Source of the DNA: Escherichia phage REP2
Reading direction: 5' to 3' (one strand)
DNA: 64,000 nucleotides
Sequence record: OQ174501.1
Shown: piece after piece, positions 3,288 through 47,965 of the stretch
Numbering within the stretch: the first letter of the stretch is position 1
Layout of the letters: every line of letters begins with the position of its first letter
Made by a program: the position numbers and the translations under genes
Notes under the pieces: generated by a model
Databases searched by the model: none
What the model was told of the DNA's origin: nothing
What the model saw: the letters and a program-made list of their open reading frames with translations, nothing else

Positions 3288-3772
3288 TTTTAAAAACTCG
3301 CTGGTATGATTTAGATGATGGGGACGATGGCATTTCAGTTGATAGAGTTGACTGGAGTGGCTGTTCCGAAGATATGAAAAAATTGTTAATTAGGGAGTTT
3401 AGAATGGGATATCAAGCAGCTAAGCCATCTACTGTAACAGATGATAAATTCGTGTGTATTCAAAATGGTCGTGCTAAGTTAACGAACGCTGATTGGTTCA
3501 CAGATAAGAAGGTTATTCTGTGGTATATTATTAGTTTTCCTGTGACATCATTTGTATTTTGCTTCTTTGGAGAAAGTCCAGTAGGCAGAACGGAAGATTG
3601 GATTCTTTTAATTATACTTGTTAATATTTTTACAGCAGCAGTACTATCAGGAATATGGTGCGTGTTCATTGAAATGCCATGGCGGTTACGTAGGCAGCAA
3701 AAGATTTTTGATGAAAAGAAATATACTCAAAATTTAAATAATTTTATCACTGAATGCAGGAAATTAAAATGA
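3284..3772 (+). CDS. Small membrane protein, paralogue family
   Basis: 162 aa; TM segments; C-terminal TECRKLK; its stop overlaps the nudE start (ATGA). Confidence 0.55.
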   Translation: MILKTRWYDLDDGDDGISVDRVDWSGCSEDMKKLLIREFRMGYQAAKPSTVTDDKFVCIQNGRAKLTNADWFTDKKVILWYIISFPVTSFVFCFFGESPVGRTEDWILLIILVNIFTAAVLSGIWCVFIEMPWRLRRQQKIFDEKKYTQNLNNFITECRKLK

Positions 3773-4208
3773 AAACATTATCAGCTGGTATTATCTTTAT
3801 GACAGAAGATAAAGATTTATTTATGGGACGAGTTACTGGTTCTCGTAAGCCTGGAATGATGGCACATCGCTGGATATTCCAAAGGGGCGTGTAGAAAATT
3901 CTGATTTAAGCGCATTAGATGCAGCACGAAGAGAATGCTCAGAAGAGACTGGTTTTAACAATTATAATCCAGACCTTCTAGAAGACCTAGGTGTATTTAA
4001 ATATTCTAGTAATAAAGACTTACAGTTATTTTATTATACGATTCCAGTAGAGCATGAGATGTTCAGAAATTGCCGTTGTGAGTCTTATTTTGAAAATAAA
4101 GATGGCGTTATGATTCCAGAGATGGATGCTTTTGCTCTTATTCCTCGTACTCAGTGGCAATATGTGATGGGTCCTTCACTTTACCGAATAATGAACAGCC
4201 TCTTTTAA
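3769..4208 (+). pseudogene. nudE: Nudix hydrolase NudE (e.1) with apparent 1-nt deletion frameshift
   Basis: N-terminal 41 codons (MKTLSAGIIFMTED...MMAHRW) stop at 3892-3894; the rest, including the Nudix box GRVENSDLSALDAARRECSEETGF, continues in the -1 frame to 4208. The break is at tgg(g)atattcc. Confidence 0.6.
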
Positions 4209-5698: not shown

Positions 5699-5837
5699 TA
5701 TGGGAACAACCTGGACCTCATGATTCTATGAGGGATTCCCGCCAACCTGTAATAAGGTCGAGCCTGAGTGCGGTAATGGGTAAATACAGAAATGGACAAT
5801 TCATGCGCCACGGAATGGCCCAAATTTAGAGAGAATA

Positions 5838-6379
5838 AAATGAGAACATTTTTAACTGGTCCTTATCTATCCCTGATGAATGCTTTTACACACCATTCTG
5901 ACGCTAGAGTAGAAGAAATTTGTAAAAACGAATATATCCCGCCATTTGAAGAATTACTTAAACAGTACTGCACACTTCGACTAGATGGTGGACGTCAATC
6001 TGGTAAATCAACTGCAGTAACTAATTTTGCCGCTAATTGGTTGTATGACGGTGGAACAGTTATTGTTCTTTCTAATACTTCAGCTTACGCTAAAATTTCT
6101 GCAAATAACATTAAAAAGGAATTTTCGCGTTATTCTAATGATGATATACGTTTTCGTTTATTTACTGATTCTGTACGCAGTTTTATTGGTAATAAAGGAA
6201 GTAAGTTCAGAGGTTTATCGCTTTCGCGAATTTTGTATATAATTGACGAGCCTGTCAAATCTCCTGATATGGATAAGATTTATAGTGTCCATATTGACAC
6301 TGTACACTGCTGCTGTAATATTAAATGTTGTATTGGTGGTATTACTCGTCCACAGTTTTTCGTAATCGGAATGCAATGA
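5838..6379 (+). CDS. P-loop (Walker A) protein
   Basis: GGRQSGKST Walker A motif; start placed at the ATG after ggagagaataaa (ORF track starts at 5792); Cys-rich C-terminus. Confidence 0.5.
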
Positions 6380-6711: not shown

Positions 6712-7074
6712 ATGAAAGCATATCAAATTCTTGAAGGCACACATAAAGGTACTATTTATTTTGAAGATGGTATTCAAGCACGAATTATTGTCTCTAAAAC
6801 CTTTAAAGAGGACTCTTTTGTAGACCCAGAAATTTTCTATGGTTTGCATGCCCGTGAAATTGAAATTGAGCAACAGCCTACAGTTAAAATTGAAGGTGGT
6901 CAACACCTGAACGTTAACGTTCTGCGTCGTGAAACTCTGGAAGATGCAGTTAAGCATCCGGAAAAATATCCGCAGCTGACCATCCGTGTATCCGGTTATG
7001 CAGTTCGCTTTAACTCTCTGACTCCGGAACAGCAGCGCGACGTTATCGCTCGTACCTTCACCGAGAGTTTGTAA
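6712..7074 (+). CDS. Autonomous glycyl radical cofactor (GrcA/YfiD-like)
   Basis: C-terminal ~60 aa ([59 protein letters not shown]) matches E. coli GrcA with the glycyl-radical RVSGY motif; this half has host-like codon usage (ctg, cgt, ccg). Confidence 0.85.
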
Positions 7075-7295
7075 TGGCAAAGATAATTATTGAAGGTTCT
7101 GAAGATGTGCTAAATGCTTTCGCCGAGTGGTTTAGTAATTCAGGCGAACAGCAATTTAACGAAGCATGGAACATGGGTGATATTAATGGAATTTATCCTA
7201 CGACAGAAATTTCTGTTCAAGGATATGGCATTCATGAACCTATTCGTTTAGTTGAATATGATTTGGGAACAGGTGAGGAAGTAAAATATGATTGA
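7074..7295 (+). CDS. Hypothetical small acidic protein
   Basis: TAATG overlap with the upstream gene; 73 aa. Confidence 0.5.
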   Translation: MAKIIIEGSEDVLNAFAEWFSNSGEQQFNEAWNMGDINGIYPTTEISVQGYGIHEPIRLVEYDLGTGEEVKYD

Positions 7296-31085: not shown

Positions 31086-31328
31086 AAGATGAACACCCAG
31101 ACTTCTGAAATAGATTATAATAAAATTCGTTCCTCTAAAGAGGAAATGATGAGACTCTTTAAAGCGTCTCATGATAAAGCTAAAGCAGAAGGAACTATAA
31201 AATATAAGCGCATAAAATTTAAAAGTTCTAATGAGCCTCTGTATGGCGTATTATGTGGATAGGAGCTTCGGCTCCTATATTGCTTTATAAATTTTTGGTA
31301 AAATAAACCAAAACAAAGAGGATATTAA

Positions 31329-44495: not shown

Positions 44496-45236
44496 ATGAT
44501 TAGTGACTCTATGACAGTTGAAGAAATCCGTCTTCATTTGGGGCTTGCATTAAAAGAAAAAGATTTCGTAGTTGATAAAACTGGCGTTAAAACTATTGAA
44601 ATTATTGGCGCATCATTTATAGCAGATGAACCGTTTATTTTTGGCGCTCTTAATGATGAATACATTCAGCGTGAACTTGAATGGTATAAATCTAAGAGCT
44701 TGTTCGTTAAAGATATTCCGGGTGAAACACCGAAGATTTGGCAACAAGTAGCATCTTCTAAAGGTGAAATTAACTCGAATTATGGCTGGGCTATCTGGTC
44801 AGAAGATAACTATGCCCAGTATGATATGTGTTTAGCTGAACTTGGTCAAAATCCTGATTCTCGACGTGGTATCATGATTTATACTCGTCCATCCATGCAA
44901 TTTGACTACAATAAAGATGGTATGTCAGATTTCATGTGTACTAATACAGTACAGTACCTGATTCGTGATAAGAAAGTCAATGCGGTTGTTAGCATGAGAA
45001 GCAATGATTGCTGGGCAGGCTATCGTAATGATTATGCTTGGCAAAAATACGTACTAGATAAATTAGTATCTGATTTGAATGCAGGCGACCCATCGCGGCA
45101 ATATAAAGCAGGTTCTATTATATGGAACGTTGGAAGTCTTCATGTGTACGAAAATCAGTTTTATTTAGTTGACCATTGGTGGAACACCGGTGAGACTCAT
45201 ATTGCTAAAAAGGATTATACTGGAAAATGGAAGTAA
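44496..45236 (+). CDS. 42: dCMP hydroxymethylase gp42
   Basis: 246 aa; thymidylate-synthase-like fold; conserved position. Confidence 0.88.
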   Translation: MISDSMTVEEIRLHLGLALKEKDFVVDKTGVKTIEIIGASFIADEPFIFGALNDEYIQRELEWYKSKSLFVKDIPGETPKIWQQVASSKGEINSNYGWAIWSEDNYAQYDMCLAELGQNPDSRRGIMIYTRPSMQFDYNKDGMSDFMCTNTVQYLIRDKKVNAVVSMRSNDCWAGYRNDYAWQKYVLDKLVSDLNAGDPSRQYKAGSIIWNVGSLHVYENQFYLVDHWWNTGETHIAKKDYTGKWK

Positions 45237-45867
45237 ATGTGCCACATGTTTATAAGTATAAACATCCTAAAACTAAAAAGTGGTATATAGGAAGTCATGA
45301 TGGTCACAACCCGAATTATGATGGTTCGGGTGTAGTTTGGCAACATGCTAAAAAGAAATATGGAATAAAATCCTTTAATAAAGAAATATTATATGAAGGA
45401 CCAATGTTTAGACAGGTTGAAGAAATTATTTTAACTTGTTTAGATGCTGCTAATTGTCCGGATTCATATAATTTAAAGAATGAAGCATGGGGAGGAAGTT
45501 TTCCAGGCAAATTAAATGGAATGTACGGTAAAAACTATCTCCAGAAGAAAGATATAAGTGCGGAAATGCCTTTCGTGGAATCAAGCGTCCTGATCATTCT
45601 AAAAGAATGAAAGGCGAAGGTAATCCAATGTATGGTAAAAATGAGCAGGCATATGGAATTATAAATCGAGCCAAGGAAAATTCTGGTAAAACTTATGAAG
45701 AAATTTTTGGCGTAGAAAAAGCTAAAATAATTAAAGAAACGATGTCTAAAAATCGTAAAGGAAAACCTCATAATTTGATAGAAAAAATATGTCCGCATTG
45801 CGGACTAAAAGGACGTGGGCCAAATATGACAAGATACCATTTTGACAAATGTAAGGCACTTAAATGA
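45227..45867 (+). pseudogene. GIY-YIG (Seg-like) homing endonuclease gene split by a frameshift
   Basis: ORF 45227-45610 carries VYKYKHPKTKKWYIGSHDG (GIY-YIG) and NUMOD-like GKLNGMYGKN; the second frame, open from 45559 to 45867, carries GNAFRGIKRPDHSKRMKGEGNPMYGK repeats and the zinc finger CPHCGLKGRGPNMTRYHFDKC. Confidence 0.6.
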
Positions 45868-46706
45868 TTCAATTCGTAATTCCAAGTTATCAGCGTGTAG
45901 GGGCAGTTTCTGCCCTTAATATGTTTCCGACTGATTATGAACCCCATATTGTAGTGCGTGAACACGAAGAAAAAGCTTATTATGATGCTTATGGGTCTAG
46001 AGCTAAAATTATAACTATTCCTGATGATGTAAACGGAATTGCCGGTACTCGTAAAGCAATTACTGATATGTATGCAGGCCAACGAATCTGGATGATTGAC
46101 GATGATACTACTATTCGTATGAGTTCAATGCGAAAAAGAGATGACCGTCGTTGCGTGGATAAAGTCAATCAATTGACTCATGAACAGTTCTATGAATTGA
46201 TTCAATACGTCGAAGATGCCATGGATTGCGGGTATTATCACGGTCATGCTCGCCTACCAATTTTTAAAATTACTTCATCTTGGGGTAATTATCGTGAAAA
46301 TTCATATGGATTCACGAATACATGGTATGACCTTGGAAAACTTACGACAGAACAAATTGGGTATGGAAAAATTGATTTGTGCGAAGATATGTATGCATTT
46401 CTTAATTTAATTAATCAAGGTTATCCGCATTTGGCCTTGTTCAAATATCTGGTTGTATCTGGAAAAGCGCAAGCTCCTGGTGGGTGTAGTTCAATTCGTA
46501 GTAATTCTAAACATAATAGAGCGCTTGAGCAAATCAATAGAGAGTTTCCAGAGCAAGCTCGTTGGAAAACTTCTAATATCGAAAAACGAAAATCGTTGGG
46601 TGAAGAAGACGAGCCATTAAAGGTTCTTCGCATGTGTGTTTCGCGTAAAGAAAAATCAGAAGCATTTCATAAGTTTAATGCTATTCATCCAATAGCAGTT
46701 GATTAA
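45864..46706 (+). CDS. GT-A-type glycosyltransferase (possible T2/T6-type beta-alpha glucosyltransferase)
   Basis: 280 aa; IPSYQR...DDD motif; occupies the T4 beta-gt position between 42 and uvsX but does not match T4 beta-gt. Confidence 0.55.
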   Translation: MIQFVIPSYQRVGAVSALNMFPTDYEPHIVVREHEEKAYYDAYGSRAKIITIPDDVNGIAGTRKAITDMYAGQRIWMIDDDTTIRMSSMRKRDDRRCVDKVNQLTHEQFYELIQYVEDAMDCGYYHGHARLPIFKITSSWGNYRENSYGFTNTWYDLGKLTTEQIGYGKIDLCEDMYAFLNLINQGYPHLALFKYLVVSGKAQAPGGCSSIRSNSKHNRALEQINREFPEQARWKTSNIEKRKSLGEEDEPLKVLRMCVSRKEKSEAFHKFNAIHPIAVD

Positions 46707-46783
46707 TGCCTAAATTTATTGTGTTATAATTACTCTATCTTTAACCAGTGAGGAAAATATAATGATGCCTATGGAAAAAATGA

Positions 46784-47965
46784 ATGTCTATTGCAGATTT
46801 AAAATCCCGTTTGATTAAAGCTTCCACTTCTAAAATGACTGCTGAACTGACTACATCTAAATTCTTTAATGAAAAGGATGTAATTCGTACAAAAATTCCA
46901 ATGCTTAATATTGCTATTTCTGGTGCAATTGATGGCGGTATGCAGTCTGGTTTAACTATTTTCGCAGGGCCTTCTAAACACTTTAAATCAAATATGTCTT
47001 TGACTATGGTTGCGGCATATTTGAACAAATATCCTGACGCGGTTTGTCTATTCTATGATAGCGAATTTGGTATTACTCCAGCTTATTTGCGATCCATGGG
47101 AGTTGACCCGGAACGTGTAATTCATACGCCAATTCAGTCAGTTGAACAACTGAAAATTGATATGGTGAACCAGCTTGAAGCTATTGAGCGTGGTGAAAAG
47201 GTTATTGTATTCATCGACTCAATCGGTAATATGGCTTCTAAGAAAGAAACGGAAGATGCCTTGAATGAAAAATCTGTGGCAGATATGACTCGTGCTAAAT
47301 CACTGAAGTCATTATTCCGTATTGTTACTCCTTACTTTAGCATTAAAAATATTCCATGTGTTGCGGTTAACCATACAATTGAAACAATTGAAATGTTTAG
47401 TAAAACCGTGATGACAGGTGGTACAGGCGTAATGTATTCGGCTGATACTGTATTCATTATCGGTAAGCGTCAGATTAAAGATGGTTCTGATCTTCAGGGG
47501 TATCAATTTGTTCTAAATGTAGAAAAATCTCGTACCGTTAAAGAAAAAAGTAAATTCTTTATTGATGTTAAATTTGACGGTGGTATCGATCCTTATTCTG
47601 GATTGTTAGATATGGCTCTAGAATTAGGATTTGTAGTAAAACCTAAGAATGGTTGGTATGCTCGTGAATTTCTTGACGAAGAAACCGGCGAGATGATTCG
47701 CGAAGAAAAATCTTGGCGTGCAAAAGATACCAACTGCACTACATTCTGGGGTCCTTTATTTAAGCATCAACCATTCCGAGATGCTATTAAACGCGCTTAT
47801 CAGTTAGGTGCTATTGATAGTAATGAAATTGTTGAAGCTGAAGTTGATGAATTGATTAACTCAAAGGTTGAAAAATTTAAATCTCCAGAAAGTAAAAGTA
47901 AACCAGCAGCTGATTTAGAAACTGACCTCGAGCAGTTAAGTGATATGGAAGAATTTAATGAATAA
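46784..47965 (+). CDS. uvsX: Recombinase UvsX (RecA-like)
   Basis: 393 aa; Walker A GPSKHFKS; RecA-like core. Confidence 0.93.
   Translation: MSIADLKSRLIKASTSKMTAELTTSKFFNEKDVIRTKIPMLNIAISGAIDGGMQSGLTIFAGPSKHFKSNMSLTMVAAYLNKYPDAVCLFYDSEFGITPAYLRSMGVDPERVIHTPIQSVEQLKIDMVNQLEAIERGEKVIVFIDSIGNMASKKETEDALNEKSVADMTRAKSLKSLFRIVTPYFSIKNIPCVAVNHTIETIEMFSKTVMTGGTGVMYSADTVFIIGKRQIKDGSDLQGYQFVLNVEKSRTVKEKSKFFIDVKFDGGIDPYSGLLDMALELGFVVKPKNGWYAREFLDEETGEMIREEKSWRAKDTNCTTFWGPLFKHQPFRDAIKRAYQLGAIDSNEIVEAEVDELINSKVEKFKSPESKSKPAADLETDLEQLSDMEEFNE

Follow-up and report, generated by a model that had tools for sequence, protein, structure and literature searches.

A one-base loss in an A6 run splits a seg-like GIY-YIG homing endonuclease gene between gene 42 and gt of Escherichia phage REP2

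The homing endonuclease gene that lies between gene 42 and gt in a 64,000-nt stretch of DNA from Escherichia phage REP2 (OQ174501.1; the whole stretch is referred to below as the window) is probably a loss-of-function allele of a free-standing, seg-like gene of the GIY-YIG type, in which a run of six A residues has been shortened to five by replication slippage; the probability of this reading is estimated at about 0.8. On this reading, the event is an ordinary, recent and recurrent inactivation of a mobile gene. The intact gene encodes a single protein of 213 aa in nearly all of the phages that carry it, and the shortened run separates the nuclease domain of this protein from its putative DNA-binding region.

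The coordinates of the locus are given in Table 1. Region 45100-46000 of the window is 100% identical to Escherichia phage REP3 (OQ174502.1, Tequatrovirus), and parts of it are matched by approximately 400 records of T-even phages. According to a later preprint, REP3 is an isolate from river water. In related loci, the product of gene 42 matches the Pfam family Thymidylat_synt. The ORFs bear out the original prediction that the nuclease part and the C-terminal part of the endonuclease gene are in different frames between gene 42 and the glycosyltransferase gene. The second of these frames, which had been described as open from 45559 to 45867, does exist and does end there, but it is open from 45532, immediately behind a TAA at 45529-45531. 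The endonuclease cassette shares its first 10 nt with gene 42 and its last 4 nt with gt, the ATG of gt overlapping the stop codon of the endonuclease gene (ATGA), and a scan of the + strand inside the endonuclease gene for promoters and terminators found nothing above chance. The GenBank annotation of REP3 already shows the split, the gene being entered as two CDSs, a "homing endonuclease" of 127 aa and a "hypothetical protein" of 86 aa.

Table 1. Features of the gene 42/gt locus in the window (positions are those of the whole 64,000-nt stretch)
Feature	Position	Strand	Description
Gene 42 (dCMP hydroxymethylase)	44496-45236	+	246-aa ORF; upstream of the endonuclease gene
Endonuclease ORF 1	45227-45610	+	127 aa; GIY-YIG nuclease part and out-of-frame tail
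Frameshift site	45530-45534	+	A5 tract; A6 in intact alleles; A7 in Yersinia phage PYps5T
C-terminal frame of the endonuclease gene	45532-45867	+	Two NUMOD3-like motifs, helical region, CPHC...HxxxC zinc-ribbon-like end
86-aa ORF, ATG-initiated, inside the C-terminal frame	45607-45867	+	
Second A6 run of the endonuclease gene	45782-45787	+	Intact in the window; A7, frameshifted, in vB_EcoM_Shinka
Beta-glucosyl-HMC-alpha-glucosyltransferase gene (gt)	45864-46706	+	Pfam TAGT; downstream of the endonuclease gene
uvsX	46784-47965	+	Next after gt in the local order

The window was aligned with four related records to place the frameshift. VEc20 is 99.9% identical to the window in this region, and the only difference that changes the reading frame is the length of the homopolymer at the frameshift site: the run has five residues (A5) in the window, REP3 and BCH953P2, and six (A6) in VEc20 and Shinka. 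The A6 version is a single 642-nt ORF of 213 aa. The comparison with intact genes of relatives that the original prediction had proposed thus yielded a contiguous ORF, for example in VEc20, and the frameshift noticed from the window alone is accounted for by the loss of one base from an A6 run; the alignment puts the shift at 45530-45534 and not near 45559, where it had been placed. The A5 state is derived. Around the junction, the intact protein reads ...NGMYGKKLSPEERYKCG... (also given as ...NGMYGKKLSPEERYKCGNAFRG...). In the 127-aa product of the window, residues 1-102 are native and take in the nuclease domain (GIY-YIG) and the beginning of the first NUMOD3-like motif, and residues 103-127 (NYLQKKDISAEMPFVESSVLIILKE) are read out of frame up to a TGA. 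The break lies precisely where the tether behind the nuclease domain begins. The exact A5 sequence is found in two of 71 GenBank phage records, the others listed spanning one extra base, and approximately 97% of the records carrying the endonuclease gene have A6 and a contiguous 213-aa gene.

The one-frame state is also that of the wider family. A database search retrieved 70 related protein clusters, most of them of 208-230 aa, and in an alignment of 44 clusters the junction motif and both halves of the protein are conserved in one frame; a naturally split homologue was not found among these 44. The family is present in three phage genera and more than 44 protein clusters, always as one contiguous ORF. 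When genes from Escherichia, Klebsiella and Yersinia phages were compared by the Nei-Gojobori method, dN/dS was 0.12-0.15 overall and at most 0.21 for each half, with synonymous sites near saturation. These ratios indicate that the intact endonuclease gene is under long-term purifying selection, and because the intact gene would have been kept by such selection, the A5 state most likely represents a recent loss.

The A5 allele is not confined to REP2 and REP3. Ten contigs of the protein collection encode exactly the 127-aa product, and three intact 213-aa variants are encoded on 65, 120 and 30 contigs. Besides REP2 and REP3, carriers of the 127-aa product include a contig in the E. coli assembly GCA_033877295.1, the ENA assembly OZ035785.1 together with its probable read set ERR12949624, and the Logan assemblies of SRR26820293 and SRR35864830, and the allele is spread over five distinct backgrounds that were sampled and submitted separately. 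Of 6384 positions compared between GCA_033877295.1 and REP3, 48 differ, A5 being common to both; the other A5 backgrounds diverge by 1.7-5.5%, and every one of them has an A6 genome as a closer relative than any other A5 genome. An extra segA-like gene is carried by one of the A5 backgrounds. Within the endonuclease gene, A5 is found on four haplotypes, each of which has an A6 counterpart, and therefore the change arose more than once or was moved by recombination; all four combinations of tract length and the SNP at 45655 occur. Exact scans of IMG/VR (no contig with A5, one with A6) and a metagenome scan for A5-A7 (two contigs, both A6) returned too few sequences for allele frequencies.

Changes of length are found in both directions and at both runs, because A7 is present at the frameshift site in PYps5T and at the second A6 run in Shinka. 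At least four of the 77 gene copies are broken, all of them at A6 runs, which is what replication slippage predicts. Runs of six A residues are the classical hotspots of spontaneous frameshifting in T4 rIIB (Streisinger; Pribnow et al.), and the distribution of variants suggests that the A6 tract of the endonuclease gene behaves as a natural frameshift hotspot. The A5 allele has the properties of a pseudogene allele generated by slippage, namely a derived change in a mononucleotide run, presence in distinct genomes, and location in a dispensable gene.

A single-base difference in a homopolymer, the length of which is a classic site of sequencing error, could also have arisen by miscalling or misassembly, the true REP3 genome having A6 and an intact 213-aa gene. 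Miscalls would be expected to produce A-run variants in both directions (A5 and A7), and REP3 has a second frameshift, from G3 to G2 in nudE, which is private to it (one of 360 records) and represents either a real pseudogene or an imperfect consensus. However, the identical A5 allele is shared by five distinct genomes from separate samples and submitters, and in the Logan assemblies it lies on contigs of 28-33 kb, lengths that would need accurate reads. The neighboring essential genes are intact in all six A5 loci, genes 42, gt, uvsX and 40 being full length. Furthermore, tblastn with T4 ORFs detected no frameshift in 43, 44, 62, 45, 46, 47, 41, 61, uvsX or 42, and the window retains 67 A/T runs of at least six residues, none of which breaks the ORF of a replication gene; the differences of frame from T4 are mostly common lineage variants (vs.5, a-gt.2 and vs.8, on tens of contigs). 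VEc20 was set aside as a reference for the whole window, because it is 96-98% identical outside the seg region and the resulting list of indels is therefore dominated by true divergence. Since A5 is common to several genomes and A7 is found at both A6 runs, a one-off sequencing error is unlikely.

The original assignment of the gene to the GIY-YIG homing endonucleases agrees with several comparisons. The intact protein matches PHROG 314, "homing endonuclease" (E=2e-31), and, below the cut-off of the model, TIGR01453, "group I intron endonuclease" (E=3e-5, residues 8-185). BLASTP against T4 SegC, SegB, SegD, SegA and SegE gives E values of 3e-12 to 1e-6, the N-terminal ~100 residues being 31-38% identical. 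Because the Pfam GIY-YIG model (PF01541) has no match to the protein at E<=1 and the Pfam NUMOD3 match is sub-threshold (E=0.0027), the fold was tested directly. A single-sequence phmmer search of the PDB returned only an ABC-transporter match, which was rejected as spurious, and a profile and a fold search were needed. With a profile built from the family and the T4 Seg proteins, the best match in the PDB is the catalytic domain of I-TevI, covered over its whole length (E=0.025). An AlphaFold model based on 44 homologues (mean pLDDT 88) has the same domain as its top Foldseek match (1MK0; probability 1.0, target TM 0.67), with an rmsd of 2.8 Å over 99 columns. The positions Y9, Y20, G22, E65 and N82 are conserved in the 44 homologues, and the protein accordingly has the Tyr...Tyr-x-Gly, Glu and Asn positions conserved in the GIY-YIG fold, all of them within residues 1-102 of the window product.

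In the model, an alpha/beta nuclease domain occupies approximately residues 1-90. Two short helices coincide with the NGMxGK / NPMxGK motifs behind it, residues 140-177 form a helical region, and the motif CPHC...HxxxC lies on a beta-beta-alpha element (186-208). The NUMOD motifs and the zinc finger that had been proposed for the C-terminal part are each supported in part. The Pfam NUMOD3 match is weak, but the motif is conserved and PF07460 is precomputed on many members of the family; the CPHC...HxxxC motif is conserved and is predicted to form a beta-beta-alpha element, but it has no significant match in the databases. Phage GIY-YIG enzymes need tethered DNA-binding regions of the NUMOD type to reach their long targets (PMC3943268), and the modeled architecture of the intact protein follows this modular plan. 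Intact relatives have the nuclease domain and the two conserved NUMOD-type motifs in the same polypeptide. In the window allele, residues 1-102 are cut off from the DNA-binding region, and the two are not tethered in one polypeptide.

It is conceivable that the two fragments function separately, the 86-aa ORF being translated by termination-reinitiation and its product either reassembling with the nuclease or acting alone as a repressor or a protector of the target. [quoted passage not shown] On the other hand, the intact gene already has the ATG at 45607 as an internal Met codon, and a stop codon overlaps it only by chance, as a result of the shift; the ATG is not preceded by a Shine-Dalgarno sequence, and no homologue in the family is naturally split. 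Moreover, the A5 allele is identical to its A6 twin, and therefore it has acquired no compensatory change. Function in two pieces is accordingly quite unlikely, although reinitiation at 45607 could yield the DNA-binding part as a separate fragment and could allow ribosomes to stay on the mRNA as far as gt.

Restoration of the full-length endonuclease, perhaps at a low level, by a programmed -1 frameshift or by transcriptional slippage on the A-run can be considered, because ribosomes that shift by -1 on GGU AAA AAC would read precisely the wild-type GKKLSPEE again. Homing endonucleases are normally expressed at a very low level (PMC2988022), and even leaky shifting could therefore matter. However, U AAA AAC is non-canonical with respect to the heptamer X XXY YYZ, and the predicted RNA fold of the 100 nt downstream (z = -1.41) is no better than 18 of 200 shuffled sequences. 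Five A residues are too few for appreciable slippage by RNA polymerase. In addition, the same sequence with A6 is a plain ORF in approximately 97% of the alleles and in all 44 clusters, and therefore a dedicated signal has not evolved. A programmed shift is very unlikely, and recoding in any form is hardly to be expected as the explanation of the split gene, although trace spontaneous shifting may occur in the A5 allele.

The distribution of the gene among T-even phages is that of a mobile, free-standing element that is not fixed. When a synthetic empty site, in which the last 200 nt of gene 42 were joined to the first 200 nt of gt, was used as a query, 473 GenBank phage records covered the 42/gt junction; in 77 of them (16%), the junction was matched as two pieces approximately 627 nt apart, the endonuclease gene being present, and in the remaining 396 it was matched as one contiguous piece, the gene being absent. 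T2, T6, RB6 and RB18 are among the phages without an endonuclease gene at this junction. In the empty site, the stop codon of gene 42 overlaps the ATG of gt (AAATGA) with nothing between them, as in T2, T6 and CJY920, and the cassette has been inserted precisely there. Because the endonuclease gene is absent from 84% of the relatives, it is dispensable. The suggestion that the gene had decayed after fixation does not agree with this distribution; since only 16% of comparable genomes carry it, decay is underway at a time when targets remain abundant.

The 3′ part of gene 42 differs between endonuclease-bearing phages and T2/T6. Beside the insertion, 15 of 50 and 8-10 of 41 positions differ, and a further divergent bin (19 of 50, ~44996-45045) lies upstream, most other bins having 0-7 differences per 50; the strongly diverged parts with respect to seg-less phages are ~44996-45045 and 45146-45236. 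Divergence of this kind is suggestive of the flanks of a putative homing site, and the diverged 3′ part of gene 42 is a likely candidate for the region of the putative endonuclease target. The endonuclease-less phage CJY920 looks like a recombinant in this comparison of sequences.

Homologues with 68-74% nucleotide identity are located directly after gene 42 in Jiaodavirus phages of Klebsiella and in Yersinia phage MHG19, and since this position is the same across genera, the element is tied to gene 42. In MHG19, the gene downstream of the endonuclease homologue is a T4-type beta-gt. Klebsiella phage vB_KpnM_GF appears to keep only the last ~35 codons of the endonuclease gene, a 634-bp deletion having also removed the end of gene 42; this phage was set aside as evidence of decay, because its record is described as a "partial genome".

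The gene resembles the T4 seg genes in several respects. Among the T4 Seg proteins (SegA-SegG), it shares the N-terminal domain with SegC, SegB, SegD, SegA and SegE, in which the residues Y9, Y20, G22 and H24 and the motifs GSG, KYG and YN are common to both sides, and its presence/absence polymorphism among relatives is a further resemblance. Like segC, segF and others in T4, it is a free-standing cassette without a promoter that overlaps the upstream gene, and the T4 seg cassettes are translationally coupled (PMC2988022). The likeness is limited to the nuclease domain, however, and the C-terminal CPHC...HxxxC region is peculiar to the 42/gt gene. In T4 itself, nothing lies between 42 and beta-gt, and segA is located between beta-gt and uvsX. 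Some records label the 42/gt gene as segD or segE. Orthology with these genes was considered and rejected, because the best match is SegC (36% over 117 aa, N-terminal domain only), SegD being 31% identical and SegE 36% identical over 88 aa, and because T4 segD lies between 23 and 24 and segE between inh and uvsW. By these comparisons, the 42/gt endonuclease represents a distinct seg-like family and is not an orthologue of a T4 seg gene; no named seg gene at this junction came up in a search of the literature.

With I-TevI, which is encoded by the td intron of T4, the 42/gt protein shares the catalytic fold and the modular order of nuclease, linker and DNA-binding module. It differs in being free-standing instead of intron-encoded, in having only ~20% identity, and in its DNA-binding region, which has no detectable homology to that of I-TevI. 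Precedents for inactivation are provided by I-TevIII and mobA, which are annotated as defective in the T4 record (PMC2790892, PMC1865063). The lesions in those two genes are deletions or truncations fixed in T4, whereas that of the 42/gt gene is a single-base change, polymorphic (approximately 3-4% of alleles) and potentially revertible. In kind, the mutation is the same as at the A6 hotspots of T4 rIIB, where one A is gained or lost in a six-A run. Laboratory mutant spectra served to define the rII hotspots, whereas the variants of the 42/gt gene come from natural isolates, in which they are tolerated because the gene is dispensable.

These results are best explained by a model in which a promoter-less cassette was inserted exactly at the junction of the gene 42 stop and the gt start in phages of the T2/T6 type. 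The intact endonuclease is probably translated by coupling to gene 42 through the 10-nt overlap, and the 213-aa protein would consist of an N-terminal nuclease, a NUMOD3-like tether and a helical, zinc-ribbon-like DNA-binding region. In a mixed infection, to judge from the characterized Seg enzymes, the intact enzyme would cut a seg-less relative near the 42/gt junction, and repair of the cut would copy the cassette in together with its flanks. In the A5 allele, translation is expected to end after the nuclease domain and 25 junk residues, and a nuclease without its targeting module should have lost site-specific cleavage and homing. The event is probably recent, because the A5 allele shows no further decay, and A5 would have either recurred or been spread by recombination. 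The original view of the gene as a degenerating mobile element is thus retained, given the intact 213-aa form in approximately 97% of records, the derived nature of the loss, its presence in five genomes, and the lack of frameshift signals.

Some caution about the loss of function is warranted, because T4 SegC, a protein of 140 aa, has been reported to be active (PMC2988022, Table), and short Seg proteins can therefore work. SegC keeps approximately 35 residues beyond the point at which the 127-aa product leaves the frame. It is also imaginable that the A6 tract is a reversible on/off switch, that is, a contingency locus, or that the off-state gives a functional 86-aa DNA-binding protein; populations would then carry A5, A6 and A7 on many haplotypes, and variants in the off-state would avoid the cost of the nuclease or a conflict with 42/gt, and would still be able to revert. 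Presence on four haplotypes, changes of length in both directions and the lack of secondary lesions fit a switch, and neutral slippage in a dispensable, AT-rich gene would be expected to produce the same pattern equally well. Such a switch is very doubtful, and inactivation by slippage remains the preferred reading.

With respect to annotation, the two CDSs correspond to one pseudogene, broken at 45530-45534. REP3 is used in biocontainment studies with recoded genomes, and its content of pseudogenes (the endonuclease gene and nudE) is therefore worth recording. The analysis documents an uncharacterized seg-like family that is tied to the 3′ end of gene 42 in three phage genera, and the distinct zinc-ribbon-like DNA-binding end of this family is of possible interest for Tev-type nuclease fusions. 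The locus also illustrates, from phages in the wild, how A6 tracts act as natural hotspots of frameshifting. The wider import of the finding is small: it is one more case of the cycle of invasion, decay and loss through which the homing endonucleases of T-even phages pass.

A second frameshifted gene in the window is the homologue of nudE (the T4 e.1 Nudix hydrolase), in which 46 amino acids are encoded in one frame and the remainder in another, the break being a reduction of G3 to G2 (CATCGCT-GGATATT in the window, CATCGTTGGGATATT in T4). This G2 sequence occurs, among 360 phage records, in REP3 only, so that the break reflects either an error in the consensus or a pseudogene private to REP3. 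Three other ORFs, resembling vs.5, a-gt.2 and vs.8, carry indels of 1 nt or 8 nt that set their frame apart from that of the T4 reference. For vs.5 and a-gt.2, the window has the common form (found on 82 and 76 contigs, respectively), so that it is T4, or the T4 reference sequence, that deviates.

Features discussed in the text, with positions in the window or in relatives' loci (L005; L022, E. coli assembly GCA_041350275.1; L036, Klebsiella phage vB_KpnM_GF)
Feature	Sequence	Position
nudE homologue	window	3754-4208 (break near 3872)
vs.8-like ORF	window	5792-6379
vs.5-like ORF	window	7074-7295
a-gt.2-like ORF	window	31089-31262
Terminator-like hairpin	window	45898-45918
Glucosyltransferase gene/uvsX spacer	window	46707-46783
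Lys-Lys codons, intact endonuclease allele	L022	~3303-3308
Remainder of the endonuclease gene locus (634 bp missing)	L036	1977-2099
Second GIY-YIG gene	L005	4485-5150
Second GIY-YIG gene	L022	4486-5151

A G+C-rich terminator-like hairpin (TAGGGGCAG-TTT-CTGCCCTTA) lies 35 nt within the glucosyltransferase ORF and may serve in regulation or RNA processing. The stem and loop (GGGGCAGTTTCTGCCC) are likewise conserved in T2, T6 and CJY920, all of which lack the endonuclease gene at the 42/glucosyltransferase junction; the sole difference in this region is the base following the 3′ stem arm, which is A in the window and G in those phages.

In one intact allele of the endonuclease gene, that of the E. 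coli assembly, the Lys-Lys pair is encoded by AAG AAA (GGTAAGAAACTATC), which breaks up the slippery A6 run and leaves the protein unchanged. The Jiaodavirus record vB_KpnM_GF lacks, relative to ValerieMcCarty03, 634 bp, which span the 3′-terminal ~110 nt of gene 42 and the greater part of the endonuclease gene. Only the last ~35 codons of the latter (…CPHCGKVGSGPNMTRYHFDKCKDKK) are left, either as a deletion remnant or as a 'partial genome' artefact.

In some relatives, the interval between the glucosyltransferase gene and uvsX contains a second GIY-YIG gene (221 aa), which matches T4 segA in position and SegA in length, and one relative having this gene carries the A5 (broken) allele of the endonuclease gene. 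The window, in contrast, has only a 77-nt spacer in this interval. Therefore, the 42-uvsX stretch is a hotspot for endonuclease cassettes.
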